Counted from the first letter of the stretch, positions 1 to 64,000 are shown. The stretch is DNA of 64,000 nucleotides from a virus (IMGVR_UViG_3300032316_000223:2487-66486); one strand, 5' to 3'. Numbers and translations are program-made. The notes: generated by a model from the sequence alone, not told the origin.

Positions 1-20
1 AAATATAGAATAAATCCTAG

Positions 21-116
21 TGAGCCTCTGAGCCTAGCAAATAACCCCCTAAAGGGTGAGCCTAGCAAATAAGAGCAAATAACCTAGGTCAGCAAAAAGG
101 TTAGCAAATCGCTAAC
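21..116 (+). repeat. AGCAAA(TAA)-core direct repeats upstream of the first small gene
   Basis: TGAGCCTAGCAAATAA at 29-44 and 57-72; GAGCAAATAA 73-82; AGCAAA 91-96; TTAGCAAAT 101-109; hairpin GTTAGC-AAATC-GCTAAC 100-116. Confidence 0.7.
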
Positions 117-141
117 TAAACTAAAAGAAAGGTGGTCTCAA

Positions 142-369
142 ATGACTACATTAAATAACTACTATAACGAAATTCGTTCTGATATTGCTAAGGACTTTGG
201 TCTAGAGGCAGGTGGCTATGCGCCACAACCTAAGATGATACCTATCAGAATTGCTGCTCGCATTAACTATAAGTATCCTCCTACCTATGAGGGTAGAAAA
301 GTTATTCTCAACCCTATGGCGGTGCGTATTGCTAAGCGATACCTATCACTATCTAAGGTAGGTGAATAA
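142..369 (+). CDS. hypothetical early-type protein (75 aa)
   Basis: ORF with SD-like AAAGGTGG upstream; first of four coupled small ORFs. Confidence 0.7.
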   Translation: MTTLNNYYNEIRSDIAKDFGLEAGGYAPQPKMIPIRIAARINYKYPPTYEGRKVILNPMAVRIAKRYLSLSKVGE

Positions 370-522
370 ATGACTATCACCTATACACTTTGGCAGGGTA
401 GCCAATTACTAGCAGTAAATCAAAAGGCTAACAAGCCAGAAGAAATACTTGCAGTTATTGCAGAACTAAATAAATTAGGTAAGGGTTTCACTTACAACAT
501 TAGAGAAGTAGAGGTTAAATAG
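370..522 (+). CDS. small hypothetical protein (50 aa, MTITYTLWQG...)
   Basis: Hand-translated; abuts the previous stop, with GGTG upstream. Confidence 0.65.
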   Translation: MTITYTLWQGSQLLAVNQKANKPEEILAVIAELNKLGKGFTYNIREVEVK

Positions 523-524
523 TT

Positions 525-677
525 ATGGAGTTCTACATTAACTTAGATTTTATTAGTATCTATGCTGATAGCATAGGACTACAGGTAGAGTTGCCTACAT
601 GGCTACTAATTGGCTCTATTGCATTAGTTTATTCTATTAAACTAATTAGAAACGAAAAGTCAGGGGAATCTAAATGA
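525..677 (+). CDS. small membrane protein (50 aa, MEFYINLDF...)
   Basis: Hand-translated; GAGG SD; hydrophobic stretch LPTWLLIGSIALVYSI. Confidence 0.6.
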   Translation: MEFYINLDFISIYADSIGLQVELPTWLLIGSIALVYSIKLIRNEKSGESK

Positions 678-847: not shown

Positions 848-898
848 TAGGGGGCAACCCCTCTAGTGTGCTCACTATTTTTTTTATTTTTTATTTTT
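848..898 (+). terminator. putative rho-independent terminator
   Basis: AGGGG-GCAA-CCCCT hairpin, second hairpin TAGTG-TGCT-CACTA, then a long T tract. Confidence 0.6.
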
Positions 899-1149: not shown

Positions 1150-1172
1150 CCACAATATGCTAGAATATATAT

Positions 1173-2326: not shown

Positions 2327-2327
2327 A

Positions 2328-16322: not shown

Positions 16323-18353
16323 GTGTCAGATATCTTTTCTTTTCGTTTGTCAGATGAGTTTGTAAATAAATATACTGAGGTACCAGCCCCATTTGGCTTT
16401 TCAGATGCTGGATCAAACTCTTTAGGTGAGATTACTTTTATACGTACCTATTCTCGTATGAAAGAAGACGGAACAAAAGAAAGATGGCATGAGGTTTGCA
16501 AGCGGGTAATTGAAGGAATGTATTCAGTACAAAAGAATCACGCTAAAGACAATAGACTTCCATGGAACGACAATAAGGCACAGAAGTCTGCTCAAGAAGC
16601 CTTTCAAAGAATGTTTGAATTAAAATGGACACCTCCAGGTCGTGGTCTATGGGCATTTGGCACTCCTATGACTATGGAGAAGCGTAACTCTGCTTCCCTT
16701 CAAAACTGTGCAATGGTTTCTACTCGTGATATTGATCGTAATGATCCTGGAGCATTATTTGCTTGGGTTATGGATGCTTTAATGTTGGGTATTGGTGTAG
16801 GCTTTGATACCGTCGGTCAAGACAAAGAAATGCCTATCTATGCTCCAACAGAGCCAGAAAATGTATGGGATATTCCAGATACTCGTGAGGGCTGGGTTGA
16901 TTCTGTAAGAATGCTCTTAAACTCATACCTACGCCCTAATCAGGCTATACAGAAGTTTAACTATGACCTTATCCGTCCTCTAGGTGCCCCTATAAAAGGC
17001 TTTGGAGGGGTTGCTAGCGGTCCAGAACCACTCATTGCACTACACAGTAAGATAGACAGGGTAATTGGCGGTAGACCAGGAGAAACACTTGATTCTCGTG
17101 CAATAGTAGACATTGTAAATCTTATTGGTACATGTGTTGTTTCTGGTAATGTTCGTCGTTCTGCTACTTTGGCTTTAGGAAATGCTGAAGATAAAGATTT
17201 TATTAATTTAAAAAATGCAGAGGTTTTTCCAGATAGAAACTCATTTGATTCAAAGAATCCAGGATGGGCTTGGATGTCTAATAATTCTATTTCTGCAGAA
17301 GTTGGAACAAAATATGAAGACTATGTTGACTTAATTGCAGACAATGGAGAGCCAGGATTTATTTGGCTAGATGTTGCTAGAGATTATGGAAGATTAGCGG
17401 ACGCTCCAGATTATAAAGATTCTCGTGTTATGGGATTCAATCCATGCGCTGAACAACCATTGGAAAGTTATGAATTATGCACACTTGTAGAAGTTCATCT
17501 AAATCGTCATGAAAATAAAGAAGACTTTTTACGTACATTAAAGTTTGCTTACTTATACGGCAAGACTGTTACGCTTATGCCAACACATTGGCAAACTACA
17601 AATGGAATCATGCAACGTAATCGTCGTATTGGAACATCACTTACGGGCATTGCATCTTTTGCAGATAAAAAAGGTATGCCGATTATTCGTGAGTGGATGG
17701 ACGAAGGTTATAAAAAGATTCGCTCATATGATCACACATACTCAGAATGGCTATGTGTACGTGAATCAATTCGTGTAACTACCGTCAAACCTTCAGGATC
17801 TGTTTCATTGTTATCTGGTGCAACACCAGGAGTCCATTGGGGTCCAGGAGGAGAGTTCTATCTTCGTGCTATAAGGTTTGGTAATACAGATCCAATGGTG
17901 CACCTATTTAAAGCAGCAGGGTATAAAATTGAAGATGACGTAGTATCAGCAAACACTTCAGTAGTATATTTCCCAGTAGCATCTGGACATCCTCGTTCTG
18001 AAAAGGATGTAAGTCTTTTTGAAAAGATTGGTTTGGCTGCTACCGCTCAAAAGTATTGGTCTGATAATGGAGTATCCGTAACTTTGTCATTTGACAAGGA
18101 GTCTGAGACCAAGCACATTGCTCCAGCATTACACATGCATGAAGGTCAATTAAAGGCAGTTTCATTTTTACCTATGGGTAATAAAACTTATCCACAGCAA
18201 CCATATACAAACATTACAAGAGAAGAGTATAACTCTTATGTTGGTAAAATTGGTAAAATTGATTGGTCTGCTATTTATGATGGCAAGGATAATCTTGATG
18301 CAGAGTCTGAAAAGTATTGCTCAACAGACGCTTGCGAAATCAAACTATATTAG
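16323..18353 (+). CDS. nrdJ: class II (adenosylcobalamin-dependent) ribonucleotide reductase
   Basis: RTYSR, PPGRGLW, LQNC, GNVRRSA, NPCAEQ.L...ELCTL, TTVKPSGSVSLL, C-terminal C...CE redox pair. Confidence 0.93.
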   Translation: MSDIFSFRLSDEFVNKYTEVPAPFGFSDAGSNSLGEITFIRTYSRMKEDGTKERWHEVCKRVIEGMYSVQKNHAKDNRLPWNDNKAQKSAQEAFQRMFELKWTPPGRGLWAFGTPMTMEKRNSASLQNCAMVSTRDIDRNDPGALFAWVMDALMLGIGVGFDTVGQDKEMPIYAPTEPENVWDIPDTREGWVDSVRMLLNSYLRPNQAIQKFNYDLIRPLGAPIKGFGGVASGPEPLIALHSKIDRVIGGRPGETLDSRAIVDIVNLIGTCVVSGNVRRSATLALGNAEDKDFINLKNAEVFPDRNSFDSKNPGWAWMSNNSISAEVGTKYEDYVDLIADNGEPGFIWLDVARDYGRLADAPDYKDSRVMGFNPCAEQPLESYELCTLVEVHLNRHENKEDFLRTLKFAYLYGKTVTLMPTHWQTTNGIMQRNRRIGTSLTGIASFADKKGMPIIREWMDEGYKKIRSYDHTYSEWLCVRESIRVTTVKPSGSVSLLSGATPGVHWGPGGEFYLRAIRFGNTDPMVHLFKAAGYKIEDDVVSANTSVVYFPVASGHPRSEKDVSLFEKIGLAATAQKYWSDNGVSVTLSFDKESETKHIAPALHMHEGQLKAVSFLPMGNKTYPQQPYTNITREEYNSYVGKIGKIDWSAIYDGKDNLDAESEKYCSTDACEIKLY

Positions 18354-21865: not shown

Positions 21866-22267
21866 ATGGTTATGGAATCCCTAATTAACCCAAAAACTGG
21901 TAAGCCTTATGTTAAAAATGTCCGTCGCCAGGTAATAGATAAGCATTATGACTGGGGTCTTTACGTATATAAGACATCCTCTGGTAAATGGTTTACAGAC
22001 GAAGAAGGATCAGTTCTAAATATACCTTCCGACCGTGGAGACATTTCAAAAATTGCAGAGTTAAAAAAAGTTGCAATACATTACGGAGATGATGGACTTG
22101 GCACAGCAGTATTTGTTCCAGGGCTAACTCAAGTTAGTGAAGAAGAGTATTCCGAACAAAAGGCAAGATTAAAAGAAGGATTAATTCCTTCAATGAATGA
22201 TTTAGGTGCCTGGCATGCAGCACAACAAACATTGGAAAAACATGGAAGAGGTGCAATGGATGAGTGA
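21866..22267 (+). CDS. hypothetical protein upstream of portal
   Basis: ORF with TGATATACT just upstream (ATG 21872 is a likely leaderless start). Confidence 0.6.
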   Translation: MVMESLINPKTGKPYVKNVRRQVIDKHYDWGLYVYKTSSGKWFTDEEGSVLNIPSDRGDISKIAELKKVAIHYGDDGLGTAVFVPGLTQVSEEEYSEQKARLKEGLIPSMNDLGAWHAAQQTLEKHGRGAMDE

Positions 22268-23864
22268 TCAAGAATATATCCGTGCAAGTCTTAATACAGA
22301 AGAAAAACAAGACAACATTTTTAAATCACATGACCCATTTAACAAAACTTGGGATGTTTTAAAAGATTATGTTGGGCTTGACCAAAACTTTCGTCGTAGA
22401 ACAACTCGTAATTTAACAAAATATGCTGCACCCGAATTCAATGAAGCATACTTAGACGCAGCAAACGCAACACCATCTGGAGTAAATGCTGGATCTAAAC
22501 AAATCAATCCTGGCACGGTATATAGGAATGGTTACGGACTATTTGACGTAATTACTCCTCCATACAACATGTACGAATTAGCCAACTTCTATGACACATC
22601 ATTTGCTAACCATGCTGCAATTGACGCCAAGGTAGAAAACATTGTAGGTCTTGGATATCGCTTTGATATATCGGATAGAACGTTGTTAAGGTTTGAAATG
22701 AACGAAGATGCAGGTGCGGTAGAACGTGCTCGTAATCGTATTGAAAGAGCCAAGATTCAGGTACGTGACTGGTTAGAAAATTTAAATGATGATGATAGTT
22801 TTACAAAAACAATGGAAAAAGTTTACACAGACCTTCAGGCAACAGGTAATGGATTCATTGAAGTAGGTAGAACAACTGCTGGAGAAATTGGCTATGTTGG
22901 CCACATTCCAGCAACAACTGTTCGTATACGACGTTTACGTGATGGTTTTGTGCAGATTATTGGTCAAAAGGTAGTTTACTTTAGAAACTTTGGAGCAAAA
23001 AATGCAAACCCTATGGGTACAGATCCACGCCCTAATGAAATAATTCATTTAAAAGAATACTCACCTTTAAATACATTTTACGGTATTCCAGATATTATTG
23101 CAGCAATGCCATCTCTTATTGGAGATCAACTTGCTTCTCAATATAACATTGACTACTTTGAAAATAAGGCTGTTCCAAGATATGTTGTAACCTTAAAAGG
23201 TGCAAAACTTTCAGGTGATGCTGAAGATAAAATGTTTAGATTTTTACAGACTGGCCTTAAGGCTCAATCACACAGAACCCTTTATATTCCGCTTCCTGGA
23301 GACACAGAAGGAAATAAGGTTGAATTTAAGATGGAACCAATTGAAAACGGTATCCAGGATGGCTCATTTAAAGAGTATCGCAAACAAAACCGTGATGATA
23401 TTTTAATTGCCCATCAAGTTCCTATTTCAAAACTAGGTGGTGCAGATTCTGGAGGCGTTGCAGCAGCGCTTTCTCAAGACCGTACATTTAAAGAACAGGT
23501 ATCTCGTCCAGCGCAGAGACATTTGGAAAAGGTTGTAAACAAAATCATAAGAGAAAAAACAGACATTCTTGAACTTAGGTTTAACGAACTAACCCTAACT
23601 GATGAAATTGCACAATCTCAAATTCTTGAAAGATATGTAAAGACTCAGGTTATGACTCCAAATGAGGCTCGTGAAATGTTAGACTTGCCATTAAGAGCAG
23701 ATGGAGATACGCCATTTGTTATGTCTCCAAGACAAGCAACCGATGCTAGAGCAAATTTAGCAGGGGATCGTCAAAGAGATTCAGAAAGAACAAATAACAA
23801 TTCTGATTCGCCAACTACTATATCTGGACGTAATGCACAAGGTGAGGGTAGATCGTCTCAATAA
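22260..23864 (+). CDS. portal protein
   Basis: GNGFIEV, EIIH.KEYSP...YGIP, YFENKAVP, MTPNEARE; start re-set to 22260 (GAGGT SD). Confidence 0.9.
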   Translation: MSDQEYIRASLNTEEKQDNIFKSHDPFNKTWDVLKDYVGLDQNFRRRTTRNLTKYAAPEFNEAYLDAANATPSGVNAGSKQINPGTVYRNGYGLFDVITPPYNMYELANFYDTSFANHAAIDAKVENIVGLGYRFDISDRTLLRFEMNEDAGAVERARNRIERAKIQVRDWLENLNDDDSFTKTMEKVYTDLQATGNGFIEVGRTTAGEIGYVGHIPATTVRIRRLRDGFVQIIGQKVVYFRNFGAKNANPMGTDPRPNEIIHLKEYSPLNTFYGIPDIIAAMPSLIGDQLASQYNIDYFENKAVPRYVVTLKGAKLSGDAEDKMFRFLQTGLKAQSHRTLYIPLPGDTEGNKVEFKMEPIENGIQDGSFKEYRKQNRDDILIAHQVPISKLGGADSGGVAAALSQDRTFKEQVSRPAQRHLEKVVNKIIREKTDILELRFNELTLTDEIAQSQILERYVKTQVMTPNEAREMLDLPLRADGDTPFVMSPRQATDARANLAGDRQRDSERTNNNSDSPTTISGRNAQGEGRSSQ

Positions 23865-23904: not shown

Positions 23905-25236
23905 ATGTTAATAAACAAGGCTCATTGGGAAACTAAAGGTGACAGTGTTCGCCTTTCAATGCCCATTGGAAAAGTAGATGTTGAGCGCCGTATGGTCTCT
24001 GGTTTTGCAACCCTAGACAACGTTGATCGTCAAAATGACATTGTAACAACAGAATCTAGTATAAACGCTTTTAAGAATTTCCGTGGTAACCTTCGTGAAA
24101 TGCATCAACCAAGTGCTGTTGGTAAAATTGTTTCTTTTAAAGAAGATAAGTATTTTGATCCAAGTACTAAAAAGTTTTATAGCGGAGTTTATGTTTCTGC
24201 TTACGTTTCCAAAGGTGCACAGAATGCATGGGAAAAAGTTTTAGACGGAACCTATACTGGTTTTTCAATAGGTGGAAACATTAAAGAATGGGATGACGCT
24301 TACGACGAGAAAATAGATAAGACAATTCGTGTAATTAAAACTTATGAGTTGTCAGAACTTTCTCTTGTAGATAATCCAGCAAATCAATTTGCAAACATAG
24401 TTTCTATTGAAAAAATTAATGGGCAAAACGTAGTTGATGGATATCTATCAAAAACAGAAATTGAAAATGTATTTTGGGACTCAGAAAACGGTATTGTCAT
24501 GGTATCTGATTCTGACTCTGCAACAAGTCCAGTAAATGGTAATGCAATGCAAAACATTGGTTTTATAGAAAAGAATGATAAAGATACTGAAAAACTAATA
24601 AAATTCTTAGTTGATAGTGCTAAAGGCATTAATACAATTAAGATTACTAAGGAGGTAAATCTAATGACAGAATCAACAAACACAGTTTCAGAAACTGTAG
24701 TTGAAAATGCAGAGGTTGCTCCAGAGGCACAAGCAGCAGAGGTAGTAGCAGAAGCAACAGCAATTGTTGCAGAAGCAGTAGAAACCCCTGCAGTCGCTGA
24801 AGAAGCACCAGCAGTTGAAGAACTTGCTCTTGCTAAATCAGATGACGCTAGTGCAGAATCTTCTGTTGCAAAAGCAGCAGTTGAAGTAGAGACTGTGGTG
24901 GAAAAATCCGTTGCAGATGTTAAAGAAGAAGTTGCTAAAGCGGTTTCAGAAATTAATAATTCTCTTACTAATGCCTTTGGCGATCTTGCTGCAACTATCA
25001 AATCTCTTAACGAGAAGGTAACAGCAGTAACAAAATCTCTTGAATCGGTAACATCTGATGTTAATGGAATCAAGAACAACTTTAACGAGTTTGGCAAGCG
25101 AGTAGATCTTGTAGAACAAGACACTGCTTTCCGCAAGTCTGGCGATCTAGGCGAGATCGTACAGGAATCACCACAAGTGATTCATAAAACCCTATGGGGC
25201 GGTCGTTTCCTCACAAATGCCGACCTATTTAACTAA
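23905..25236 (+). CDS. prohead (capsid maturation) protease fused to scaffold
   Basis: HK97-type protease motifs D.Q.DIV, REMH, GFSIGG, ELSLVD.PAN; Ala/Glu-rich coiled-coil C-terminus. Confidence 0.88.
   Translation: MLINKAHWETKGDSVRLSMPIGKVDVERRMVSGFATLDNVDRQNDIVTTESSINAFKNFRGNLREMHQPSAVGKIVSFKEDKYFDPSTKKFYSGVYVSAYVSKGAQNAWEKVLDGTYTGFSIGGNIKEWDDAYDEKIDKTIRVIKTYELSELSLVDNPANQFANIVSIEKINGQNVVDGYLSKTEIENVFWDSENGIVMVSDSDSATSPVNGNAMQNIGFIEKNDKDTEKLIKFLVDSAKGINTIKITKEVNLMTESTNTVSETVVENAEVAPEAQAAEVVAEATAIVAEAVETPAVAEEAPAVEELALAKSDDASAESSVAKAAVEVETVVEKSVADVKEEVAKAVSEINNSLTNAFGDLAATIKSLNEKVTAVTKSLESVTSDVNGIKNNFNEFGKRVDLVEQDTAFRKSGDLGEIVQESPQVIHKTLWGGRFLTNADLFN
24664..25236 (+). CDS. nested in-frame scaffolding protein (internal start)
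   Basis: TAAGGAGGT 7 nt before in-frame ATG 24664, at the start of the acidic/coiled-coil region. Confidence 0.55.
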   Translation: MTESTNTVSETVVENAEVAPEAQAAEVVAEATAIVAEAVETPAVAEEAPAVEELALAKSDDASAESSVAKAAVEVETVVEKSVADVKEEVAKAVSEINNSLTNAFGDLAATIKSLNEKVTAVTKSLESVTSDVNGIKNNFNEFGKRVDLVEQDTAFRKSGDLGEIVQESPQVIHKTLWGGRFLTNADLFN

Positions 25237-26865: not shown

Positions 26866-27866
26866 TGTCAATAATTCTCCGTCTACCACCATATCCTTTA
26901 ACTGTTAAGTATACAGTTCCAGATGCCAATGCCAAGTATGTCATAGTTATTGAAGATGTTGCAGAGCAATCAGAAGTTGCCGCTTATAGGACATCAAATG
27001 CTAGCAAGCAAGTTAGTTATACCTTAGATGATGATTTTATTAAATACGATAAATCATATGCTTTGACAATCTATGAAGATTTAGAAGAAAGTGGCATGGT
27101 TGTAGCAGATCGTGGAGATATAGTTGTTGAAGATAATCTAGAAGTAAAACGTCCATACGTAGACCCTACACTTTTAGCAGCAGCAAACAATCAAACATCT
27201 GCAACAGAGATTGCTAAATATGTAGAGTATGAAAATTTAGCAAGAACGATCATTGATTCAATAACTGGTGGTTTTTACTATGAGCGTGAATTTGTTGAAA
27301 TTGTTGGGCAAGAGGTAGATTATATTCCGCTTTGGAAAAAAGTACATAAAATATTAAGAGTATACGAAAACACAGAACTAGTTTATGACATATACAATCC
27401 AGACGGCCCAACTGTGGGAGATTACACATACGTAATTACTAAAGATAAAACCGCACTTACAAAAGACCCAACAGCATCAGAGGGTGCAATAAATAGAGCA
27501 GAACAACGACCATCAAGAATTCCAATTGGTACGTCAGATTCTTTTTCACTTTTTGATACAGAAGACAGTGGAAACACTATGACCGTAACCCCTGGGGTAG
27601 CATTCCCAACTGGAATAGATCTTATACTATTGTTAGAAACTGGATACAAAGTAGTACCTATTGATATTCAAGATGCGACAAAACTATTGGTTGAAGATAT
27701 TAGATGTGGTAAATTAGATTATTACAAGAGATATATCAAGAACTACAGCACTGATCAATTTAAAATTGAATACGATAAAAGAATGATTGAGGGTACTGGA
27801 AATATTATTGTAGACAAGATTTTGTCTAAGTATATTAATAATATTGTTCGTCCTGGAGTGTTGTAA
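26865..27866 (+). CDS. head-to-tail adaptor
   Basis: Position; ARTIIDSITG, GY..VP.DIQDA, GTGN.IVD.IL.KY. Confidence 0.65.
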   Translation: MSIILRLPPYPLTVKYTVPDANAKYVIVIEDVAEQSEVAAYRTSNASKQVSYTLDDDFIKYDKSYALTIYEDLEESGMVVADRGDIVVEDNLEVKRPYVDPTLLAAANNQTSATEIAKYVEYENLARTIIDSITGGFYYEREFVEIVGQEVDYIPLWKKVHKILRVYENTELVYDIYNPDGPTVGDYTYVITKDKTALTKDPTASEGAINRAEQRPSRIPIGTSDSFSLFDTEDSGNTMTVTPGVAFPTGIDLILLLETGYKVVPIDIQDATKLLVEDIRCGKLDYYKRYIKNYSTDQFKIEYDKRMIEGTGNIIVDKILSKYINNIVRPGVL

Positions 27867-47057: not shown

Positions 47058-47365
47058 TGGCTGAACGCAAAGACCGTATGGCTTTGCTAAGTAGATATAA
47101 TAAGTTCCATCTACAAAGATATGAAGCCAAAAGTAACATAAATCTTAATGTTGAGCAATGGGCCTCCGATGCCCTTGTTGAGTCTTATGGTATTTCTCAA
47201 TGCTATGATTTATTAGATTATTATTTTAAAATAGCAGAAAATCCTACTTGGAATTATTTTGCATACAATGCAGAAAAAATTCTTAATGGTAAACTAGAAG
47301 TAGAACAAGACATTAAAGAACGAGAAGAGCGAAGAAAATTAGCAAGGAGGTGGATTAGTGAATAA
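47057..47365 (+). CDS. hypothetical protein upstream of helicase (possible loader)
   Basis: Coupled ORF overlapping dnaB. Confidence 0.6.
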   Translation: MAERKDRMALLSRYNKFHLQRYEAKSNINLNVEQWASDALVESYGISQCYDLLDYYFKIAENPTWNYFAYNAEKILNGKLEVEQDIKEREERRKLARRWISE

Positions 47366-48584
47366 TACAGAAGCAAAATTAATAACTGCAGTATTAAACG
47401 ATAAACAAGTCCACGTATTATTGCAAGCCAATGTTGACAACCTTTTAAGAACTCACAATGATGTGTGGGATTTTATTAGATTATACTCAGAAAACAATCA
47501 ATCAGTTCCACCAGTATCACTAGTTGTAGAAAAATTTAGAGACTTTGTGCCAGTAGAGGGTGTTGGTGCAACCAAGCATCACCTTGAAGAATTACAAACA
47601 GAATATTTAAATGATAGTCTTAAAGATATCTTACGCAATGCAGCATCTGAGGTTCAAAGCGGTAATGGTAACAATGCTCTTGAACATTTAATTACTAAGA
47701 CTTCAGAACTTAAAAAAAATACTGCTGCAATAAGAGATATTGAAGTTACAGACCTTGACTCTGCAGTTGCTTATTTTGAAAATGTAAAGAAAATGCAAGA
47801 TCTAGGACAGGTTGGAATTAAAACTGGCTTACCAGGTTTTGATAACTACCTACCTTCTGGAATTATGCCAGGGCAACTAGGGGTCTTTCTTGCATATCCA
47901 GGTATTGGAAAGTCTTGGTTGGCCCTGTACTTCGCTGTGCAGGCCTGGAAACAGGGTCGTAGTCCACTTGTCATAAGTCTTGAAATGTCTGAAACGGAAG
48001 TTCGTAACCGTGTATTTGCAATTATGGGTGAGGGCTTGTGGTCTCATCGCAAACTTAGTAATGGAGAAGTAGAGATTGATATGCTTAAAAAATGGCATGC
48101 CGATAAGTTGCAGGGTAAACCAGAGTTTCATATTATATCTAATGACAGTGGTGGAGAAGTAACTCCTTCAGTTATACGTGGAAAGATTGATCAATACAAG
48201 CCAGACTTTGTTGTAGTTGATTATTTACAATTAATGTCACCAAATCAAAAAGCAGATAACGAAACGGTACGTATGAAAAACCTTTCTCGTGAACTTAAAC
48301 TTATGTCTATTAGCGAAGAGGTTCCTATTATTGCTATCTCATCTGCCACACCAGATGATGCTAAAGATTTGTCAAGTGCCCCAACTTTGGGACAAACTGC
48401 TTGGTCAAGACAAATTGCTTATGATGCTGATTGGGTTATGGCTTTAGGTCGTGCTACGAATAGTGATATTATTGAATGTGTATTTAGAAAAAATAGAAAT
48501 GGTTTTATGGGGGACTTTTTAGTTCAAGTAGATTTTGATAGAGGATACTATCGTTACAAGGATTATGAGGATAAAAATGGTTAA
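47358..48584 (+). CDS. dnaB: replicative DnaB-like helicase
   Basis: AYPGIGKS Walker A, SLEM, VVVDYLQLM, YDAD, KNRNG. Confidence 0.92.
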   Translation: MNNTEAKLITAVLNDKQVHVLLQANVDNLLRTHNDVWDFIRLYSENNQSVPPVSLVVEKFRDFVPVEGVGATKHHLEELQTEYLNDSLKDILRNAASEVQSGNGNNALEHLITKTSELKKNTAAIRDIEVTDLDSAVAYFENVKKMQDLGQVGIKTGLPGFDNYLPSGIMPGQLGVFLAYPGIGKSWLALYFAVQAWKQGRSPLVISLEMSETEVRNRVFAIMGEGLWSHRKLSNGEVEIDMLKKWHADKLQGKPEFHIISNDSGGEVTPSVIRGKIDQYKPDFVVVDYLQLMSPNQKADNETVRMKNLSRELKLMSISEEVPIIAISSATPDDAKDLSSAPTLGQTAWSRQIAYDADWVMALGRATNSDIIECVFRKNRNGFMGDFLVQVDFDRGYYRYKDYEDKNG

Positions 48585-49500
48585 AGATTCTTATACTGCA
48601 GAACAAGTTAATCGTGTGCTAACTGGTGCTGGCATTGATATTGAGGCTGAGTATGGAACAGACTATATTATATTTTGTCCGTATCACAACAACAATAGAA
48701 CCCCTGCTGGCGAAGTATCAAAAGAGCATGGATTGTTTTTTTGTTTTGGATGTCAAACGACAAAGACTCTTGTTGAGTTTGTAATGTATATATCTAATAG
48801 AACCTACTTTGAGGCAATAAGATATATTAAAAGTAAAGAGCAAGAAACTAGCATTGAGACATCAGTCAACAAAGCATTGATAGATAAACCAGAGTTTGTA
48901 CAGTATGACGAACTATTAATTAAAAGATTAAATAATAATGCATTAGAGTCTCCAAGAGCAATTAGGTATTACGAAGGTAGGAAAATAACTAAAGACTCAA
49001 TGATAAAGTTTAATCTTGGTTATTCAGAAAAACAAGATTCGGTCACAATTCCAGTACATTCTCCAGACGGGATTTGTATTGGATTTGTTGCTAGAACAGT
49101 TGAAGGCAAAGAATTTAAAAATACACCTGGTTTGCCAAAAGGCAAGACATTGTTTAATTTACACAGAATAAAGACTTCAAGTATTGTTTATGTAGTAGAG
49201 TCTTCATTTGATGCAATTAGACTAGATCAAGTAGGATTCCCTGCGGTTGCTACGCTAGGGGCTAATGTTTCTGCAGCACAGATAAAACTATTAGAAAAGT
49301 ATTTTAATAGTATTGTTTTAATTGCAGATAACGATGATGCAGGAATAATAATGAGGGATAAGTTAATCCAAAGACTTGGACCTGTTGTTACTTCTGTTTA
49401 CATAGATAAAAAATATAAAGATATAGGCGACATGGATGATGATGCAATTAAAAAACTGGAGTTTCAGTTTGACAATTCTATTACCAATATGTTAAAATAG
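48577..49500 (+). CDS. dnaG: DNA primase (CHC2 zinc finger plus TOPRIM)
   Basis: CPYH...CFGC; VESSFDA; DNDDAG; start re-set to 48577. Confidence 0.9.
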   Translation: MVKDSYTAEQVNRVLTGAGIDIEAEYGTDYIIFCPYHNNNRTPAGEVSKEHGLFFCFGCQTTKTLVEFVMYISNRTYFEAIRYIKSKEQETSIETSVNKALIDKPEFVQYDELLIKRLNNNALESPRAIRYYEGRKITKDSMIKFNLGYSEKQDSVTIPVHSPDGICIGFVARTVEGKEFKNTPGLPKGKTLFNLHRIKTSSIVYVVESSFDAIRLDQVGFPAVATLGANVSAAQIKLLEKYFNSIVLIADNDDAGIIMRDKLIQRLGPVVTSVYIDKKYKDIGDMDDDAIKKLEFQFDNSITNMLK

Positions 49501-50185: not shown

Positions 50186-53100
50186 ATGAACTACGTAGGC
50201 TTACATGTTCATACTCACTACTCCCTATTTGACGGCATAGCAACTCCACAAGAGTATGTAGACCGTGCTAGCAAGTTGGGTATGAACGCTCTTGCAATTA
50301 CAGATCACGGTTCACTTTCTGGTCACAGAGAGTTTTACCGTTCTGCAAAAGAAAAGGGTATTAAGCCAATACTTGGTCTAGAAGGATACATGTGTGCAGA
50401 CATATCAGATAAAAGAGATAAGTCTGAAAGAACAGGTCAACAAGATCTTGTTTATAATCATATTATCCTTCTAGCCAAGAACCAAAAAGGTTTAGAAAAT
50501 CTTAACAAGATTAGCGAAATATCATGGACAGATGGATTCTTTAAAAAACCAAGGTTTGATTTTGAAATTCTTCAAAAATATAAAGAAGGAATAATTGTAA
50601 CATCTGCTTGTCCTAGCAGCGTTATTGTTAAAGCATTAGAAGAGCAGGAATTTGCAATTGCTAAAAAACATATTGAGTGGTTTAAAGATAACTTTGGTAG
50701 CGATTACTACATTGAAGTTATGCCACATAACACACCAGAAATAAATAAATACCTTGTTGATCTTGCCGATGAATTTAATATTAAAGCAGTAGTTACTCCA
50801 GATTGTCATCACGTTGATGAATCACAAAAACATATTCAAGAGTTTAAACTTTTAATGAATACTCACGCTAAGGTACAAAAAGATACTACATACGCAAAAT
50901 CTACAAAAATTGATTCCATGATGGAACGCCTTGACTATCTTTATGGGGAAGATCGTCAAATAACATTTAACAAATTTGACATTCATTTACTTTCTTATGA
51001 AGAAATTAAAGCAGCAATGGAAAAACAGGGTATTGATAGAGAAGACATATACTCAAACACACTATTGCTAGCAGAGACAGTAGAAGACTATGACATTAAA
51101 GATGGTCTTGATTTACTTCCAGTACAGTATAAAAATCCAGACCAAGAATTAGCAAACCTAGCCTTTGCTGCTCTAGAAGAAAAAAGATTAAACTCTAACT
51201 GGCTTGGTAATGATATTTACGAACAAAGGCTTGATGAAGAGTTATTTATTATTAGAGATAAAAAGTTTGCACCATATTTTTTAGTAGTTCAAAATATGAT
51301 TTCTTGGGCAAAGAAAGAAGGAATCTTAGTTGGTCCAGGACGTGGATCTTCTGCTGGCTCTTTGGTTTGTTATCTTCTAGGAATTACTGATATTGATCCA
51401 ATAGAGCATGGACTTTTGTTCTTCCGTTTTATTAATCCAGAACGTAATGACTTCCCTGATATTGATACAGATATTCAAGATACTCGTCGTGATGAAGTAA
51501 AGGATTATCTAGTTAGACAGTATAGGCACGTCGCATCTATTGCAACATTCCTTCAATTTAAAGACAAGGGGGTTGTGCGAGATGTTGCACGAGTTTTAGA
51601 TATTCCACTTACAGATGTTAACAAGGTCTTAAAACTTGTTGATACTTGGGATGAATATTGCACATCTAAAACTACACTATCGTTTAGAGAAAAATATCCA
51701 GAGGTAGAGATTTATGGAGAACAGTTACGTGGTCGTATTAGAGGTACTGGCATTCATGCTGCTGGTGTGGTTACTAGTAAGAATCCAATATTTAGGTATG
51801 CGCCATTGGAGACTCGCTCTTCTCCTGGATCCGATGATCGCATTCCTGTGGTTGGTGTTGATATGGAAGAGGCTGAAAAAATTGGTCTTATTAAAATTGA
51901 CGCATTAGGTCTTAAAACTTTAAGTGTAGTTAAAGACTGTATTGATATGATTAAAACAAATCATTATAAAGATATTGATCTTTTATCTATTGACATGGCA
52001 GATCCAAAGGTATATGAAATGCTTTCAGACGGACACACAAAAGGTGTATTTCAGTGTGAAGCAACTCCATACACGAACCTTTTAGTAAAAATGGGAGTAA
52101 AGAATTTTAATGAGTTGGCAGCATCAAATGCTCTAGTTCGTCCAGGCGCTATGAACACTATTGGTAAAGATTATATTGCTCGTAAGCACGGTAAGCAAAA
52201 CGTTTCCTATACCCACCAAGTTATGAAAGAATTTACAGATGACACATATGGGTGTATTCTTTATCAGGAACAAGTTATGCAGGCTTGCGTTTACCTTGGT
52301 GGGATGACAATGGCAGAGGCTGACAAGGTTCGTAAGATTATTGGAAAGAAAAAAGATGCAAAAGAGTTCAATATATTTCAAGATAGGTTTGTTGCTGGGG
52401 CGAGTAAGTACATATCTCCTAATAAAGCCTTGGACCTTTGGCACGACTTTGAAGAGCATGCGGGATACTCGTTTAACAAGAGCCACGCAGTTGCTTACTC
52501 TACTCTCTCGTATTGGACGGCGTGGTTAAAATATTACTATCCGCTTGAATTTATGTTTGCCCTTCTTAAAAATGAAAAAGATAAAGATGGTAGAACAGAG
52601 TATCTAATTGAAGCAAAGCGTATGGGCATATCAGTTAAACTGCCACATATTAATGATTCAGATTTAGATTTTAAAATTGAGGGCAAGGGAATTCGTTTTG
52701 GATTAACTGGTATTAAGTTTATTTCAAACAACATTGCACAAAAATATATTGATGCAAGACCATTTAATAGTTATAAACAACTTGAAGAGTTTACATTTAC
52801 AAAAGGTAATGGAGTAAACAGTAGAGCCTTAAATGCACTAAGATTAACTGGTGCTGCAACATTTTCTGATAATCCACGTAATGATGAAGATATAAAAGAA
52901 AATCTTTACGAGTATCTAAATCTTCCAGAGTTTAATATTTCTATTCCATCTCACTATTATGCATTTATTCAATCAATTGAAGATTTTGAAGAAAAAGGAT
53001 CTTTTATTTTAATGGGTATGGTTAAAGCAATTAAGAGAGGAAAAGGTTGGTCACGAGTTGAAATTCTAGACAAAACTGGAAGTGTTGGTATATTTGATGA

Positions 53101-53473
53101 AGAGTCAACAACTATTGAGACTGGTCGGACTTACTTGATTCTTGCTAATGATAATAGAATTGTTTCTGCAATTCCTGTTGATGAAATAAAAGGATCAACA
53201 AATGCACTTGTTAAGTTTTTGGGTTACAAGCAATTGCCTTATACAGAAGATGAGATGTTCGTTGTTTCATTTAAATCAAGAATAACAAAGGCTGGAAAGA
53301 AAATGGCTTCTTTAACCTTGGCAGATACTTCAAGAGACTTACACTCAGTAACAGTATTTCCTACTGCATTTCCAAAAGCATACATGCACATTGAAGAAGG
53401 CAAGTCGTATAAATTTAGTTTTGGTAAAACAAAAGATGGCACGGTAATTATGGAGGATGTAAATGTCAGTTAA
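50186..53473 (+). CDS. dnaE: DNA polymerase III alpha subunit
   Basis: PHP domain HVHTHYS..DG, TDHG; GRGSSAGSL; PDIDTD; GIHAAG; GYSFNKSHA; no intein evident. Confidence 0.95.
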   Translation: MNYVGLHVHTHYSLFDGIATPQEYVDRASKLGMNALAITDHGSLSGHREFYRSAKEKGIKPILGLEGYMCADISDKRDKSERTGQQDLVYNHIILLAKNQKGLENLNKISEISWTDGFFKKPRFDFEILQKYKEGIIVTSACPSSVIVKALEEQEFAIAKKHIEWFKDNFGSDYYIEVMPHNTPEINKYLVDLADEFNIKAVVTPDCHHVDESQKHIQEFKLLMNTHAKVQKDTTYAKSTKIDSMMERLDYLYGEDRQITFNKFDIHLLSYEEIKAAMEKQGIDREDIYSNTLLLAETVEDYDIKDGLDLLPVQYKNPDQELANLAFAALEEKRLNSNWLGNDIYEQRLDEELFIIRDKKFAPYFLVVQNMISWAKKEGILVGPGRGSSAGSLVCYLLGITDIDPIEHGLLFFRFINPERNDFPDIDTDIQDTRRDEVKDYLVRQYRHVASIATFLQFKDKGVVRDVARVLDIPLTDVNKVLKLVDTWDEYCTSKTTLSFREKYPEVEIYGEQLRGRIRGTGIHAAGVVTSKNPIFRYAPLETRSSPGSDDRIPVVGVDMEEAEKIGLIKIDALGLKTLSVVKDCIDMIKTNHYKDIDLLSIDMADPKVYEMLSDGHTKGVFQCEATPYTNLLVKMGVKNFNELAASNALVRPGAMNTIGKDYIARKHGKQNVSYTHQVMKEFTDDTYGCILYQEQVMQACVYLGGMTMAEADKVRKIIGKKKDAKEFNIFQDRFVAGASKYISPNKALDLWHDFEEHAGYSFNKSHAVAYSTLSYWTAWLKYYYPLEFMFALLKNEKDKDGRTEYLIEAKRMGISVKLPHINDSDLDFKIEGKGIRFGLTGIKFISNNIAQKYIDARPFNSYKQLEEFTFTKGNGVNSRALNALRLTGAATFSDNPRNDEDIKENLYEYLNLPEFNISIPSHYYAFIQSIEDFEEKGSFILMGMVKAIKRGKGWSRVEILDKTGSVGIFDEESTTIETGRTYLILANDNRIVSAIPVDEIKGSTNALVKFLGYKQLPYTEDEMFVVSFKSRITKAGKKMASLTLADTSRDLHSVTVFPTAFPKAYMHIEEGKSYKFSFGKTKDGTVIMEDVNVS

Positions 53474-54476
53474 TATACAAGATGTACTATCACAGTTAGA
53501 CCCAAGAATTAGAAAGCGTCTTGGCACAGGAGAAGGAATTAACTTTGAGTATCAACCAACTCCAAGTTTTGGATTAAACCGTGCACTAGGCGGGGGACTG
53601 CCATACGGTAGACAAGTACTTGTATGGGGAAGCAAGTCATCGGCTAAGTCATCCATGTGTTTACAGATGATTGCTTTAGCGCAAGCAGAAGGCAAGGTTT
53701 GTGCATGGATTGATTCTGAAATGTCCTATTCAGAAGACTGGGCTAAGTTGATGGGGGTAGATCCAACAAAACTAATTTACTCTCAAGCACGAACTATTAG
53801 CGACATGGTAGATGTTGGCGTTGGACTTATAAATGCTGGAGTTGATCTTATTGTTATTGATTCAATTACCTCAATGCTTCCTGCAATATATTTTGAAAAA
53901 GATTCAGATGAAATGAAAGCACTTGAAAATACAAAGCAAATTGGTGCAGAGTCTAGAGACTTTAGTAATGCCTGGAAAATGCTTAACTATGCTAACAATA
54001 AAATAAAGCCTACATTGCTTGTTCTTATTTCACAATCAAGAAATAATATCAATGCAATGTACACAAGCCAACAGCCTTCTGGTGGTCAGGCAACTAAGTT
54101 TTACTCATCTTGTGTAATTAAATTGTTTTCTTCTGAGTCAGAAAATCAAGCAATTAAAGGAAAGATTAAGGTTGGAGATAAATTAATTGAAGAAAAAATT
54201 GGTAGAAAGATTCGTTGGGAACTCCAGTTCTCTAAAACCTCTCCAGGGTTTCAATCTGGTGAGTATGATTTTTATTTTAGAGGTGACAATATTGGTATTG
54301 ATGCAATAGGAGATTTAGTTGATACTGCAGAATCAATGGGCTTGGTTAATAGAACTGGCGCATGGTATCAGTTAGATGATGGCACAAAGGTACAGGGCAG
54401 AGACGGTTTTATTGCTCGTGTTAAAGAAGATCTAGATTTACAAGAACAACTTAAGAAAAAAATAATTGATGCCTGA
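53463..54476 (+). CDS. recA: RecA-like recombinase
   Basis: LGGGLPYGR, WIDSE, IVIDSI, ISQ.R, SGG.A.KFYSS, GAWY. Confidence 0.88.
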   Translation: MSVNIQDVLSQLDPRIRKRLGTGEGINFEYQPTPSFGLNRALGGGLPYGRQVLVWGSKSSAKSSMCLQMIALAQAEGKVCAWIDSEMSYSEDWAKLMGVDPTKLIYSQARTISDMVDVGVGLINAGVDLIVIDSITSMLPAIYFEKDSDEMKALENTKQIGAESRDFSNAWKMLNYANNKIKPTLLVLISQSRNNINAMYTSQQPSGGQATKFYSSCVIKLFSSESENQAIKGKIKVGDKLIEEKIGRKIRWELQFSKTSPGFQSGEYDFYFRGDNIGIDAIGDLVDTAESMGLVNRTGAWYQLDDGTKVQGRDGFIARVKEDLDLQEQLKKKIIDA

Positions 54477-55274: not shown

Positions 55275-56138
55275 ATGGCTAAAAACTTACTAAAACAGAT
55301 TATGATTAAAGATATTAAAAAAAACCAAAGAAATAGCGAAGAAGATGAAAGTCTTGTTGAAGGTTTAGACGTTGCTATAAACGCTGGCTACCTTACTAAA
55401 ACAAAACCAAAGTTTACTAAGAAGACTAACTTCTCTGCATCTAATCTAACATATGGCTCAGGGGAGTGTCCAAGGTATTGGTCATTAGCCTTTGATGGTC
55501 AAATATTTTACGATAACTCAGATGCAATTGGTGTAGCAAATAGAACACAAGGAAGCCTTGGGCACGGAAGAATTCAGGAAGCAATAGAAGCCTCTGGGTT
55601 ACTTGCAGAAGATTTAGAGTTTGATCCAATACCAAGAAAGTATAACCAACAAACTCATCCAGCAATGGAGTTTAGAGTTAAGATTGATGATCCACCTTTT
55701 GACGGGTATGGAGATGTCATGCTTGATTACAAAGGTGAAAGACTTATTGGTGAAATTAAAACAGTAAGAAATGACGACTTTGAACATAAAAAATTAAGTA
55801 GAAAACCCAAAATGGGTCACCTAATGCAATTACTGATGTATATGAAGATTTGGAAAATTGGTAAGGGTGTAATGATTTATGAAAATAAAAACAATCATGA
55901 ATTACTTACTTTGCCCGTTGTAGTAAATGATCAGTATCGCACTTGGGTAGATGAGACATTTGAATGGATGAGAGTAGTTTACAAAAGTTGGCAAGATAAA
56001 CAATTGCCAGAAATTCCTTATCGTTCAAATTCAAGAATTTGCAAGTCGTGTCCTATTCAAAAAGCATGTGCTGAAGCAGGAGACGGAACAATTAAGATTA
56101 AACCTATGAAATTATTAAAGGACGAGAAAGATGAATAA
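55275..56138 (+). CDS. Cas4-like PD-(D/E)xK exonuclease with Fe-S cysteines
   Basis: CPR, G...H, D...EIKT, QL..YM, C..C.....C. Confidence 0.85.
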   Translation: MAKNLLKQIMIKDIKKNQRNSEEDESLVEGLDVAINAGYLTKTKPKFTKKTNFSASNLTYGSGECPRYWSLAFDGQIFYDNSDAIGVANRTQGSLGHGRIQEAIEASGLLAEDLEFDPIPRKYNQQTHPAMEFRVKIDDPPFDGYGDVMLDYKGERLIGEIKTVRNDDFEHKKLSRKPKMGHLMQLLMYMKIWKIGKGVMIYENKNNHELLTLPVVVNDQYRTWVDETFEWMRVVYKSWQDKQLPEIPYRSNSRICKSCPIQKACAEAGDGTIKIKPMKLLKDEKDE

Positions 56139-62110: not shown

Positions 62111-62123
62111 AACTTTATAAATT

Positions 62124-62157
62124 AGAGGGTTAGCCAAGTGCTAGCCCTCTTTTTTAT
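62124..62157 (+). terminator. rho-independent terminator
   Basis: AGAGGGTTAGC-caagt-GCTAGCCCTCT plus T tract. Confidence 0.8.
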
Positions 62158-62167
62158 TGGATAAAAA

Positions 62168-62176
62168 TGGTATAAT
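62168..62176 (+). promoter_or_regulatory. extended -10 promoter for the last surface-protein gene
   Basis: TGGTATAAT immediately after a terminator. Confidence 0.7.
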
Positions 62177-62211
62177 TGCTAATATAACTACACATTGGAG
62201 ATTATACATAA

Positions 62212-64000
62212 TTGATTAGCCTCAAGCGCAAAATACTATTGGCTTTGGGGGTAGGTCTATGTTTAACAATTTTTGGTATTATGGCGCCTAACGAGGCCTA
62301 TGCTACGGACAATCAAGAGCAGGTAGTTGTTAGCCCTGCCCAGCAAGCAGTTAATACAGCCCTTGCAACGGCTACTACAGAGGTTCAACAGGCTATTGCA
62401 GCCACAGATACTGCTACAGCCACCATAGCCGTAGCAGTTGCTGAAAGGGTAGAGGCTCAAGCAGCAGTAGACACATTAACAGCCACAGTAGCGGTAGCAC
62501 AATCAAATGTAGCCTTAGTAGACACAGCCACCGCAACAATTAATGCTATAGATTTATCTGTTACTTCAGTGGACCAAAGTTCACAATTAGTTCAAGATGC
62601 AAAAAATACAATTACAACAGCCCAAACCTCCATAAATAATATTGATACATCCACTGCACAGGTACAAATATCTGAGGCTACTGCAGCAAGAACTTTAGCA
62701 GTTACAGCACGAACAACTGCTCAAAACGAACTAACCCAAGCCAACATTGCAATTGATAATGCTCAAACAGCAGTAAATAATTTACAAGCCACTATTGGAA
62801 CTAGCACTAATGTCCTTGCTGGCGTAGACGATGCTGGCGTTAAAATGAATCTTCCATTCGGAATGCAAATGGGTGGAAATTTATATAACAATGTATTTGT
62901 TGGGTCTAATGCAACTATAACATTTGGTGTAAATGAAGGAGCAAATTATTATTCAACTCCAAATGCTCCATCTGTATCTATTGCTGGCTGGGATTGGACA
63001 ACCTGGAGCACAGGAACTGGAATTACATATGCAACTACTGGAACAAGTTTAGATATTGCATGGGACCTTCGCCCTTATCCACAACAAGATGCTTCAACAC
63101 AGATGGTTCAAGTAAGATTTAATGCAGATGTTAATCCAACAGATGGTGCCTGGATGGCAAGTGTAACTGCCAATGGACCAATCCCAAATGGCGCTAGGTT
63201 TAACGTAAGAGAAACAACTGGTGGCGTGGTAACGGCTATTGCTAACACAGATACTGCTACCGCTACTGTAGGGTTTGCTGGAACAATTAGTCAAGGCGCA
63301 GAATTTACTCCATATGTAGATCCAAATACAGAAACAGTTCAGGCAGAAGTTGACGCAGCAAACGCTACAATTGCACAATTAAACTCAAGCCTTACTCCAG
63401 TAGTTGCTCAAAATACTACAAATACATCAGCAATAAATGCTATTAATACAACATCTTTAACTAATACCGTAAACTCAGCGGTATCTAGTAAGACAAATTT
63501 ACAAACACAACTAAATACAAATGCTCAAGAGTTAATTACAGCAATTAGCACTAATATTCCTACTCCTGCTCCAATAATTTTAGAAACAGTTGTTCAGGGT
63601 ACAGTAGTTACCATAGCGCCAGAACTTCCAACAGGGTATACAGCAAATACTTGGTTTTATCAGGTAGAAACTGAAGATCCTAATGCAGAAAATCCATATG
63701 AGGGTGGTACCTATAATACAAGTGGCGCTCCAGAATCTATTGAATTAACTGGTTTGACAGAAGGCGCTACATATTCTATTAGAGTTGCTAACTGGTCAGG
63801 GCCTGTAAGTGAATATGCAGAAGTAGTTGTTTCTATACCCGCACCACAAGGTTCTAATTTAACTACTGGTGGTCCAGTTAATACAACTCCTGTAGATACA
63901 ACTCCAGTTAATACAACTCCTGTAGATACAACTCCAGTTAATACAACTCCTGTAGATACAACTCCAGTTAATACAACTCCTGTAGATACAGAACCTATAA
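62212..64000 (+). CDS. large secreted surface protein (coiled-coil, NIDO-like, FN3, Pro/Thr stalk), truncated by window end
   Basis: Hand-translated open frame from TTG 62212 (MISLKRKILLALGVGLCLTIFG...AYA); DDAG..MNLPF...G..Y..VFVGSNATITFG; LTGL..GATYSIRVA; missing from the ORF track because there is no stop. Confidence 0.75.
   Translation, partial: MISLKRKILLALGVGLCLTIFGIMAPNEAYATDNQEQVVVSPAQQAVNTALATATTEVQQAIAATDTATATIAVAVAERVEAQAAVDTLTATVAVAQSNVALVDTATATINAIDLSVTSVDQSSQLVQDAKNTITTAQTSINNIDTSTAQVQISEATAARTLAVTARTTAQNELTQANIAIDNAQTAVNNLQATIGTSTNVLAGVDDAGVKMNLPFGMQMGGNLYNNVFVGSNATITFGVNEGANYYSTPNAPSVSIAGWDWTTWSTGTGITYATTGTSLDIAWDLRPYPQQDASTQMVQVRFNADVNPTDGAWMASVTANGPIPNGARFNVRETTGGVVTAIANTDTATATVGFAGTISQGAEFTPYVDPNTETVQAEVDAANATIAQLNSSLTPVVAQNTTNTSAINAINTTSLTNTVNSAVSSKTNLQTQLNTNAQELITAISTNIPTPAPIILETVVQGTVVTIAPELPTGYTANTWFYQVETEDPNAENPYEGGTYNTSGAPESIELTGLTEGATYSIRVANWSGPVSEYAEVVVSIPAPQGSNLTTGGPVNTTPVDTTPVNTTPVDTTPVNTTPVDTTPVNTTPVDTEPI
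63874..63990 (+). repeat. perfect 30-bp tandem repeat (about 4 copies) encoding PVNTTPVDTT
   Basis: CCAGTTAATACAACTCCTGTAGATACAACT x3 plus 27 nt. Confidence 0.95.

Follow-up and report, generated by a model that had tools for sequence, protein, structure and literature searches.

A 64,000-base stretch of DNA (the window), lying inside the 66,486-base virus contig IMGVR_UViG_3300032316_000223 (G000) and having a G+C content of 36.5%, was found to contain no copy of four palindromic 4-mers, AGCT, TCGA, CCGG and CGCG. The best explanation of the window itself is that it represents about 61% of a low-G+C tailed phage genome of approximately 105 kb whose host belongs to the freshwater Actinomycetota. 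The absence of the four words is real and far beyond chance, and we consider it probable that it arose by restriction-site avoidance under the pressure of site-specific nucleases of the host, most likely strain-variable Type II systems.

Loss of four palindromic words and its route through codon choice

Exact counting on both strands gave 0 copies of each of the four words, in the window as well as in the whole contig, in agreement with a preliminary description that had reported their absence after a read-through by eye. The eight other palindromic 4-mers which it had listed as present were also found, the window containing 187 GATC, 128 GTAC, 126 CATG, 463 TGCA, 123 ACGT, 168 CTAG, 41 GGCC and 62 GCGC. 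For AGCT, TCGA, CCGG and CGCG, respectively, base composition predicted 211, 211, 70 and 70 copies in the window, a first-order Markov model 286, 87, 36 and 23, and a second-order model 208, 45, 31 and 23. The uniform expectation of about 250 copies per word adopted in the preliminary description was too high for the G+C-rich words, while its conclusion that total loss goes beyond composition stood. Among all 256 4-mers, only these four presented an observed/expected ratio below 0.5 under the second-order model, the next lowest being TCCC (0.50).

As a further null, also proposed in the preliminary description, we permuted synonymous codons within each open reading frame (ORF), a procedure that preserves every protein and the codon usage of each gene (75 ORFs, 92% of the contig, 300 shuffles). 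The shuffled sequences carried on average 237.5±12.3 AGCT, 60.7±6.4 TCGA, 37.1±5.6 CCGG and 23.0±4.1 CGCG, with minima of 202, 46, 19 and 13, and none of the 300 shuffles fell below 13 for any word, as compared with 0 observed for each. Control words remained at the shuffled mean (GATC, 192 observed vs 189; TGCA, 480 vs 479; CATG, 138 vs 140). The 5,317 non-coding bases were likewise free of all four words, while mononucleotide shuffling predicted 15.2 AGCT, 15.6 TCGA, 3.9 CCGG and 4.1 CGCG there; zero copies were obtained in 0, 0, 5 and 12 of 500 shuffles, respectively.

A mutational or compositional bias, such as deamination of methyl-cytosine or CpG depletion, could in principle have removed the words without selection on the words themselves. 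The CG dinucleotide is indeed depleted (0.51 of expectation) and lies inside three of the four words, while AG is not depleted (1.04). Nevertheless, dinucleotide bias, the explanation which the preliminary description had named as one that would refute it, is insufficient to account for the loss, because between 23 and 208 copies are still predicted by Markov models that incorporate the biases in dinucleotides and trinucleotides. In addition, ACGT contains CG and yet is present in 123 copies, AGCT contains no CG, and, where a relative has kept AGCT, the replacements at the same sites were spread over all four positions (AGCA, AACT, TGCT, AGTT and AGCC) rather than being only C-to-T changes. 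Close relatives of the same composition keep words at full density, as described below. Bias as a sufficient cause was therefore refuted by the Markov, codon-shuffle and relatives' counts together, and we regard this explanation as highly improbable.

A fifth word, GCSGC, was depleted about ten-fold without being eliminated (2 sites vs 19.3 expected in the contig; Table 1). Separately, GTAC and ACGT were mildly low in the contig, by some 25–30% relative to the codon shuffle (130 vs 186 and 123 vs 161, respectively).

The route of the purge was visible at the level of neighbouring codons. GCT for alanine was never used after an A-ending codon (0/548), as compared with 482 of 1153 alanine codons elsewhere; AGC for serine was never used ahead of a T-starting codon (0/278 vs 139/1242), and CTN for leucine never followed xAG (0/45 vs 825/1522). 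Ahead of GAx, there was no ATC for isoleucine (0/180 vs 109/1198 elsewhere), no TTC for phenylalanine (0/107 vs 105/670) and no GTC for valine (0/180 vs 74/1207). Similarly, CCG for proline was absent when G followed (0/265 vs 22/501), and ACC for threonine was absent ahead of GGx (0/135 vs 183/1582). The three rules noticed in the preliminary description, namely the avoidance of GCT after A-ending codons, the writing of Ile-Asp as ATTGAT rather than ATCGAT, and the restriction of CCG to positions followed by A, C or T, were all borne out by these counts. Altogether 13 codon-pair contexts that would spell a word were examined and the count was 0 in every one, showing directly that, within genes, the purge operates through a choice among synonymous codons that depends on their context. 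Since none of the four words is forced by a dipeptide, the purge needs no change of protein.

Word sets among related phages

Relatives were collected with the major capsid protein as query, which gave at least 597 in the viral contig collection, of which the best 80 were kept, and 7 more from metagenome-assembled genomes (MAGs). All 16 palindromic 4-mers were counted in each relative's locus. The scored set comprised 85 rows, namely the window and 84 of the 87 loci, three being dropped because fewer than 340 capsid residues were aligned. A word was taken as eliminated when it was observed at 10% or less of the first-order expectation, with an expectation of at least 4, and as normal when observed at 35% or more, anything else being left unscored. 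CCGG was eliminated in 64 loci and normal in none (21 unscored), and CGCG was eliminated in 45 and normal in 2 (38 unscored). AGCT was eliminated in 71 loci and normal in 11 (3 unscored), TCGA in 20 and 38 (27 unscored), GGCC in 16 and 46 (23 unscored), and GTAC in 4 and 81 (none unscored). Among the loci compared, the loss of CCGG and CGCG is thus nearly constant, whereas AGCT, TCGA, GGCC and GTAC each follow an all-or-none pattern that differs between lineages. The four GTAC-free relatives (L014, L028, L063 and L069) all retained AGCT.

The same pattern was observed in whole-genome records of relatives. In G001 (88,586 bases), the observed/expected counts were 0/249 for AGCT, 0/55 for TCGA, 0/17 for CCGG and 2/19 for CGCG. 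G002 (109,757 bases) lacked AGCT (0/343) and CGCG (0/56), carried 8 CCGG of 86 expected and kept TCGA (61/88), while G003 (101,516 bases) lacked AGCT (0/360), GGCC (0/129) and CGCG (0/43), carried 9 CCGG of 56 expected and kept TCGA (68/109). Depletion of GCSGC accompanied the loss of TCGA: pooled over 12 TCGA-free loci there were 18 copies vs 56.6 expected, and in G001 2 vs 15.2, as compared with 45 vs 38.6 in five TCGA-containing loci.

An artefact of library preparation or assembly, for which we found no support, was the least credible of the explanations considered. The pattern recurred in 80 independently assembled contigs, with sets that differed by lineage, and was also present in complete genomes with terminal repeats, while freshwater bacterial genomes from public assemblies had the words at normal density.

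Lineages with different sets were closely related, with a locus-wide identity of 74–81%. L010, which has neither AGCT nor GGCC, and L014, which has AGCT at normal density and no GTAC, differed at 18% of 204 four-fold degenerate capsid sites. On the capsid tree, the minimum number of state changes was 8 for AGCT, 7 for GGCC, 5 for TCGA, 3 for GTAC, 2 for CGCG and 0 for CCGG, numbers that are only indicative because this was a quick single-gene tree in which 25 of 76 inner branches were unsupported, and the genomes are mosaic. Among aligned sites, AGCT positions were frequently common to L028 and other AGCT-containing lineages (L063, 16 of 41; L065, 10/42; L064, 7/20; L069, 4/10; L021, 4/7), and few were common to L028 and either L013 (1/22) or L057 (1/25); part of the AGCT-containing state therefore looks inherited. 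At 21 of 24 shared AGCT positions, the AGCT-free lineages presented at least two different replacements, for instance AACT and AGTT. This fits independent purges, although later neutral drift could also yield such differences.

Differences were also observed between segments of one genome. In the complete relatives G002 and G003, all 8 CCGG of the former lay within positions 78,056–88,607, and all 9 of the latter within 100,245–101,132 and 695–11,573; these two intervals form a single block that spans the genome ends and contains many small genes specific to the lineage. Even in these accessory-gene blocks AGCT and CGCG were absent, which suggests that the blocks were derived from phages avoiding another set of words. 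G002 also had no GGCC between 29,504 and 66,238.

Host enzymes and phage-borne factors as possible selective agents

The lost words are all palindromes of the orthodox Type II kind, and AluI, TaqI, HpaII/MspI and BstUI-type enzymes cut them. We infer that host Type II enzymes were the selective agent, and likewise which host carries them. Under restriction-site avoidance, the phage would escape host restriction by carrying no target sites, AGCT, TCGA, CCGG and CGCG all having been removed together with most GCSGC. Within genes a synonymous codon would be chosen wherever neighbouring codons would otherwise spell a word, and substitution would have cleared the words from non-coding DNA. An orthodox Type II endonuclease finds no target in a genome free of its sites, and a phage methyltransferase is therefore unneeded. 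The purged set would then be a record of the enzymes met by a phage lineage. Pressure on CCGG and CGCG would be common to almost the whole phage group, while that on AGCT, TCGA, GGCC and GTAC would switch from one close lineage to another, and even within a single genome from segment to segment. This switching would reflect recombination among phages and, in the host population, restriction-modification systems that vary by strain. Different all-or-none sets in close relatives are as expected if host strains carry different enzymes.

The host was resolved to the phylum Actinomycetota. When the capsid region was compared with the phage collection as DNA, no match was obtained, and relationships were detected at the protein level only. 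The capsid maturation protease had 139 matching records, all below 60% identity and mostly from Streptomyces phages; among the matches listed, those to large Streptomyces and Rhodococcus phages showed 47–54% identity over 53–73% of the protein. WhiB was detected above the family cut-off in all four relatives examined (G001–G004), while among 14 control genomes only Corynebacterium matched; in G000, which is 61% complete, the sole match scored 14.3 bits and lay within a different ORF. Phages of Actinomycetota accounted for all 175 WhiB hits obtained from the phage collection and, among the matches listed, the WhiB of one relative showed 41–47% identity to that of the same Streptomyces and Rhodococcus phages. 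Passages of two papers treat whiB as an actinophage marker (PMC6802176, PMC10202952).

Host assignment through the seven MAG records failed, since their labels were divided among Actinomycetota (3), Bacteroidota (2) and Pseudomonadota (2). The labels (L081–L087) were Flavobacterium, Flavipsychrobacter, Polynucleobacter, Methylococcus, Aquiluna, Bifidobacterium and Actinomycetota. The capsid relatives in MAGs are probably for the most part mis-binned phage contigs, and their odd word usage may help to explain composition-based binning into MAGs of three phyla. One MAG labelled Actinomycetota (G006, 1.3 Mb) pointed to a candidate host order with more than 300 species genomes, mostly of 1.1–2.2 Mb, which would correspond to 'Candidatus Nanopelagicales', an order whose small genome size and low G+C content are described in part of a published account (PMC12817590).

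C5 methyltransferases were present in 56 of 301 candidate-order genomes and, in complete genomes, were located mostly at about 420–510 kb, in an island that adjoins a conserved OGG-like gene, bears another Type II system in every genome and differed in gene content in each of 8 genomes compared. The endonuclease families found beside them were HpaII, NgoPII, HinP1I, LlaMI/BcnI/MvaI and EcoO109I, and other island proteins included an NgoFVII C-terminal domain, a weak BsaWI-like match, HNH domains and two MutH-type stretches. We take the targets of these families to be CCGG for HpaII, GGCC for NgoPII, GCGC for HinP1I and CCNGG/CCSGG/CCWGG for LlaMI/BcnI/MvaI, and presumably RGGNCCY for EcoO109I, GCSGC for NgoFVII, WCCGGW for BsaWI and GATC for Sau3AI-like enzymes. 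On these family matches, the candidate order appears to possess enzymes that would cut two of the six words that switch, and perhaps one that would cut GCSGC. Several of the island methyltransferases (L136–L156) had neighbours without a family match, which may be unrecognised endonucleases.

A number of observations weigh against host Type II systems as the agent. The host was resolved only to phylum, and the MAGs that hold capsid relatives carry labels from three phyla. Sampled candidate-order genomes had a G+C content of 45–48% as compared with 36.5% in the phage, and word avoidance was not found in them, the observed/expected ratios of the four words being 0.68–1.37. Matching families were rare, with HpaII-type enzymes in 4 and NgoPII-type enzymes in 1 of the 301 genomes, a TaqI-type enzyme was found in none of the 301 searched, and nothing recognisable for AGCT, CGCG or GTAC was present among the candidate-order enzymes. 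Moreover, the same island has systems whose words the phages keep, namely GATC (the two MutH-type stretches, apparently Sau3AI-like), GCGC (HinP1I-type), and CCNGG and relatives (LlaMI/BcnI/MvaI-type). A query with the phage sulfotransferase gave no homologue in the 301 genomes, and about half of the phage ORFs have no assigned function, which leaves room for a phage-borne factor. Single-molecule real-time sequencing detects 5-methylcytosine poorly. For Lake Biwa, part of a published methylome study reports 0 methylated motifs and 0 methyltransferases in seven Actinobacteria draft genomes (PMC6329791). The proposal of the preliminary description that several host 4-base cutters exerted the selection is partly supported, in that it fits the palindromes, the total loss, the lack of a detected phage methyltransferase and the varying sets, the cognate host enzymes being putative.

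The pressure could instead have come from methylation, if sites methylated in one host were destroyed by methylation-dependent (Type IV or IIM) nucleases in the next. Some of the C5 methyltransferases found in 56 of the 301 genomes have no recognisable endonuclease beside them, and a Streptomyces cousin described below is entirely without GATC in the part examined; methyl-specific restriction is common in Streptomyces. On the other hand, all-or-none elimination is to be predicted when a Type II enzyme cuts a genome just once, and part of a survey of phage genomes describes avoidance tied to modification-dependent enzymes as weak and ascribes it to overlapping Type II sites (PMC6286503). We consider avoidance of being methylated unlikely, although less so than the other alternatives.

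Phage-borne factors were searched for directly. The methyltransferase search comprised four Pfam families, G000 being only 61% complete: PF00145 had no match in G000 or in G001–G005, PF01555 gave nothing above cut-off in the same genomes (one 13.9-bit hit in G005), and PF02086 and PF02384 were found in none of the five genomes G000–G004. No restriction-type nuclease was present among the window ORFs scanned against Pfam or PHROGs, a scan that excluded the two largest tail ORFs (2112 and 1502 aa), a 225-aa ORF at 28315–28992 and a 188-aa ORF at 9481–10047 (− strand). Genes found in a single genome, when four were compared, encoded an epimerase, glycosyltransferases, a nucleotidyl transferase, two tryptophan halogenases, a subtilase, glycine-rich proteins, an Endonuclease VII (Pfam Endonuclease_7) and proteins without matches. 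Two small genes, of 141 aa and 111 aa (window 57791–58126), were common only to the TCGA-free G000 and G001.

These results bear on a further suggestion of the preliminary description, that the selection came from a nuclease which the phage itself encodes. One or more such word-specific nucleases would degrade host DNA, and the phage would be immune since the words are missing from its own genome. No family match was obtained for about half of the ORFs, near-universal absence of CGCG could reflect a conserved phage factor, and candidate-order genomes, which carry the words at normal density, would be good targets. However, no restriction-type family appeared among the scanned ORFs or the lineage-specific genes, and six words that switch among close relatives would require six exchangeable nucleases. 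A conserved CCGG nuclease, if there were one, would be lethal to G002 and G003 themselves, in which clusters of CCGG are left over, and the 141-aa protein was rejected as a TCGA-specific factor because homologues with 45–47% identity are present in two of five TCGA-containing relatives. A possible Cas4-like exonuclease (Table 1) is not a candidate either, because it is apparently conserved across relatives with different avoided sets: the equivalent ORF (approximately 276–294 aa) in G000–G004 presented a weak Cys-motif match, and the syntenic gene of Streptomyces phage Blueeyedbeauty is annotated as exonuclease/helicase. A nuclease of the phage as the general cause received no positive support and is, in our estimation, very improbable. 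An equally small chance attaches to a mixed origin, in which the near-universal absence of CGCG, together with that of CCGG, would come from a conserved, unannotated phage nuclease that shreds host DNA, and the loss of AGCT, TCGA, GGCC and GTAC would still be host-driven. If that were true, the conserved nuclease would be a restriction enzyme used for attack, with the absence of sites replacing methylation.

Gene content and comparison with known systems

The positions of the recognised genes and of the remaining GCSGC sites are collected in Table 1. The completeness of G000 was estimated at 61%, and four relatives bearing terminal repeats measured 101.5 to 109.8 kb. The phage is probably virulent. 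A tyrosine integrase was found in none of five genomes (G000–G004, three of them complete), serine integrases and repressors not having been searched, and the phage has its own replication set (DnaE, DnaB, primase, RecA and ribonucleotide reductase).

Table 1. Features of the window, with positions counted from its first base
Feature	Position	Strand	Evidence or remark
Ribonucleotide reductase, probably B12-dependent class II	16323..18353	+	RNR_Alpha 3.1e-32, RNR-II insertion domain 7.5e-13; phage backbone gene, words avoided through codon choice
Portal protein	22206..23864	+	Phage_portal 3.4e-30
Capsid maturation protease	23905..25236	+	Similarity to large Streptomyces/Rhodococcus phage proteases
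Major capsid protein	25266..26414	+	phrog_1623 2.6e-70; query for relatives and tree
GCSGC site (GCCGC)	26979..26983	+	Contig position 29465; one of only two in the contig
Second GCSGC site (GCCGC)	30016..30020	+	Contig position 32502
Probable tape measure, 2112 aa	31696..38034	+	Position, size and synteny with Blueeyedbeauty tape measure; ORF not family-searched
DnaB-type helicase and DnaG-type primase	47358..49500	+	Family searches
DnaE-type DNA polymerase III alpha	50186..53473	+	DNA_pol3_alpha 1.3e-72
RecA-type recombinase	53463..54476	+	Family search
Possible PD-(D/E)XK (Cas4-like) exonuclease	55275..56138	+	PDDEXK_1 20.9 bits, below cut-off of 22; synteny

No tRNA genes were found in the window, and Pfam and PHROGs family scans of its ORFs recognised no terminase anywhere. 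Just upstream of the portal gene, an ORF of 1154 aa (18389–21853, + strand) had no Pfam or PHROGs match; it could represent a large terminase that has diverged strongly, or a different protein. At the contig end, an ORF of at least 596 aa (62212–63999, + strand) runs off the contig within a tandem repeat of approximately 30-base units, which is probably why assembly stopped there. A cluster of fibre-like genes (4131–4847, 7103–8167, 11443–13569 and 14085–16175, + strand) encodes a collagen-repeat protein, an fn3 protein, a protein with matches to numerous tail-fibre families of PHROGs, and one of 696 aa whose N-terminal domain is that of the major tropism determinant Mtd. The sulfotransferase gene (8609–9430, + strand; Sulfotransfer_3 1.8e-14) was present in G000 only among four phage genomes compared. 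In G001, the tryptophan-halogenase genes (E-value of about 1e-101; L101:8832–10433, − strand, and L105:6149–7741, + strand) were accompanied by an epimerase, a nucleotidyl transferase and a glycosyltransferase, all unusual as auxiliary genes.

Restriction-site avoidance is textbook knowledge, and the present phage is an unusually strong new case of it. The main value of the data lies in the comparative pattern, in which lineages and genome segments of this abundant, uncultured group of phages carry different all-or-none word sets. Since the purged set varies between relatives and between segments, it provides a sequence-only record of host restriction enzymes and of the movement of phage modules, and the host population so recorded is an abundant, largely uncultured one of freshwater. 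The record predicts strain-variable host enzymes for AGCT, CCGG, CGCG, TCGA, GCSGC, GGCC and GTAC. In practical terms, treatment of virome DNA from lakes with the 4-base cutters of the four words should spare, and hence enrich, these genomes of approximately 105 kb.

By gene order and protein similarity, the phage appears to be a cousin of large Streptomyces phages classified in the Stanwilliamsviridae. Its gene order matches that of Streptomyces phage Blueeyedbeauty (NC_048720.1) for the ribonucleotide reductase, portal, protease, capsid, tape measure, helicase, primase, DnaE, RecA and Cas4-like exonuclease genes, and its protease is about 48% identical to that of Blueeyedbeauty and its kin. 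Over positions 10,001–60,000 of the Blueeyedbeauty record (L157), GATC was absent as compared with 161 copies expected, and CAGCTG, CTGCAG, GAGCTC and GTCGAC were also absent, with 7 to 12 expected for each. This cultured cousin, whose host is known, thus uses the same strategy with other words. It differs from the present phage in having a soil host, a G+C content of 47% and an avoided set made up of GATC and 6-mers, while AGCT (227), TCGA (144), CCGG (96) and CGCG (58) are at normal density in the same 50 kb. A literature search found no report of word avoidance in Blueeyedbeauty, nor, in titles and abstracts, in freshwater actinophages or Stanwilliamsviridae, and the subject is not mentioned in passages on actinophages from three papers (PMC10202952, PMC10914622 and PMC6802176).

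Passages of the survey by Rusinov et al. (2018; PMC6286503) describe avoidance by phages as concerning orthodox Type II sites and as stronger in non-temperate phages, elimination being complete or nearly so in about one tenth of the viral genomes. Like the avoiding phages described there, the present phage, which is probably non-temperate and in which no methyltransferase was detected, has lost short palindromes that are typical orthodox Type II targets. It differs in having lost four 4-base words at once, corresponding to approximately 360 expected sites in 66 kb, and in being depleted of a fifth. The phage is uncultured and its host is resolved to phylum, short of the usual pairing of an avoided word with a host enzyme. 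Its relatives switch six words in an all-or-none manner. For comparison, Staphylococcus phage K is also large and virulent and has totally lost GATC, the word cut by its host's enzyme; there, the loss is limited to one or two words, and the enzyme is known as well as the host. Other routes of anti-restriction include the multispecific methyltransferases of Bacillus phages and the hypermodified bases of T-even phages. The DNA mimic Ocr of T7 is a further one, described in part of the survey (PMC6286503). Ocr, phage methyltransferases and modified bases each require a dedicated gene, whereas the escape of the present phage is written into the sequence itself.

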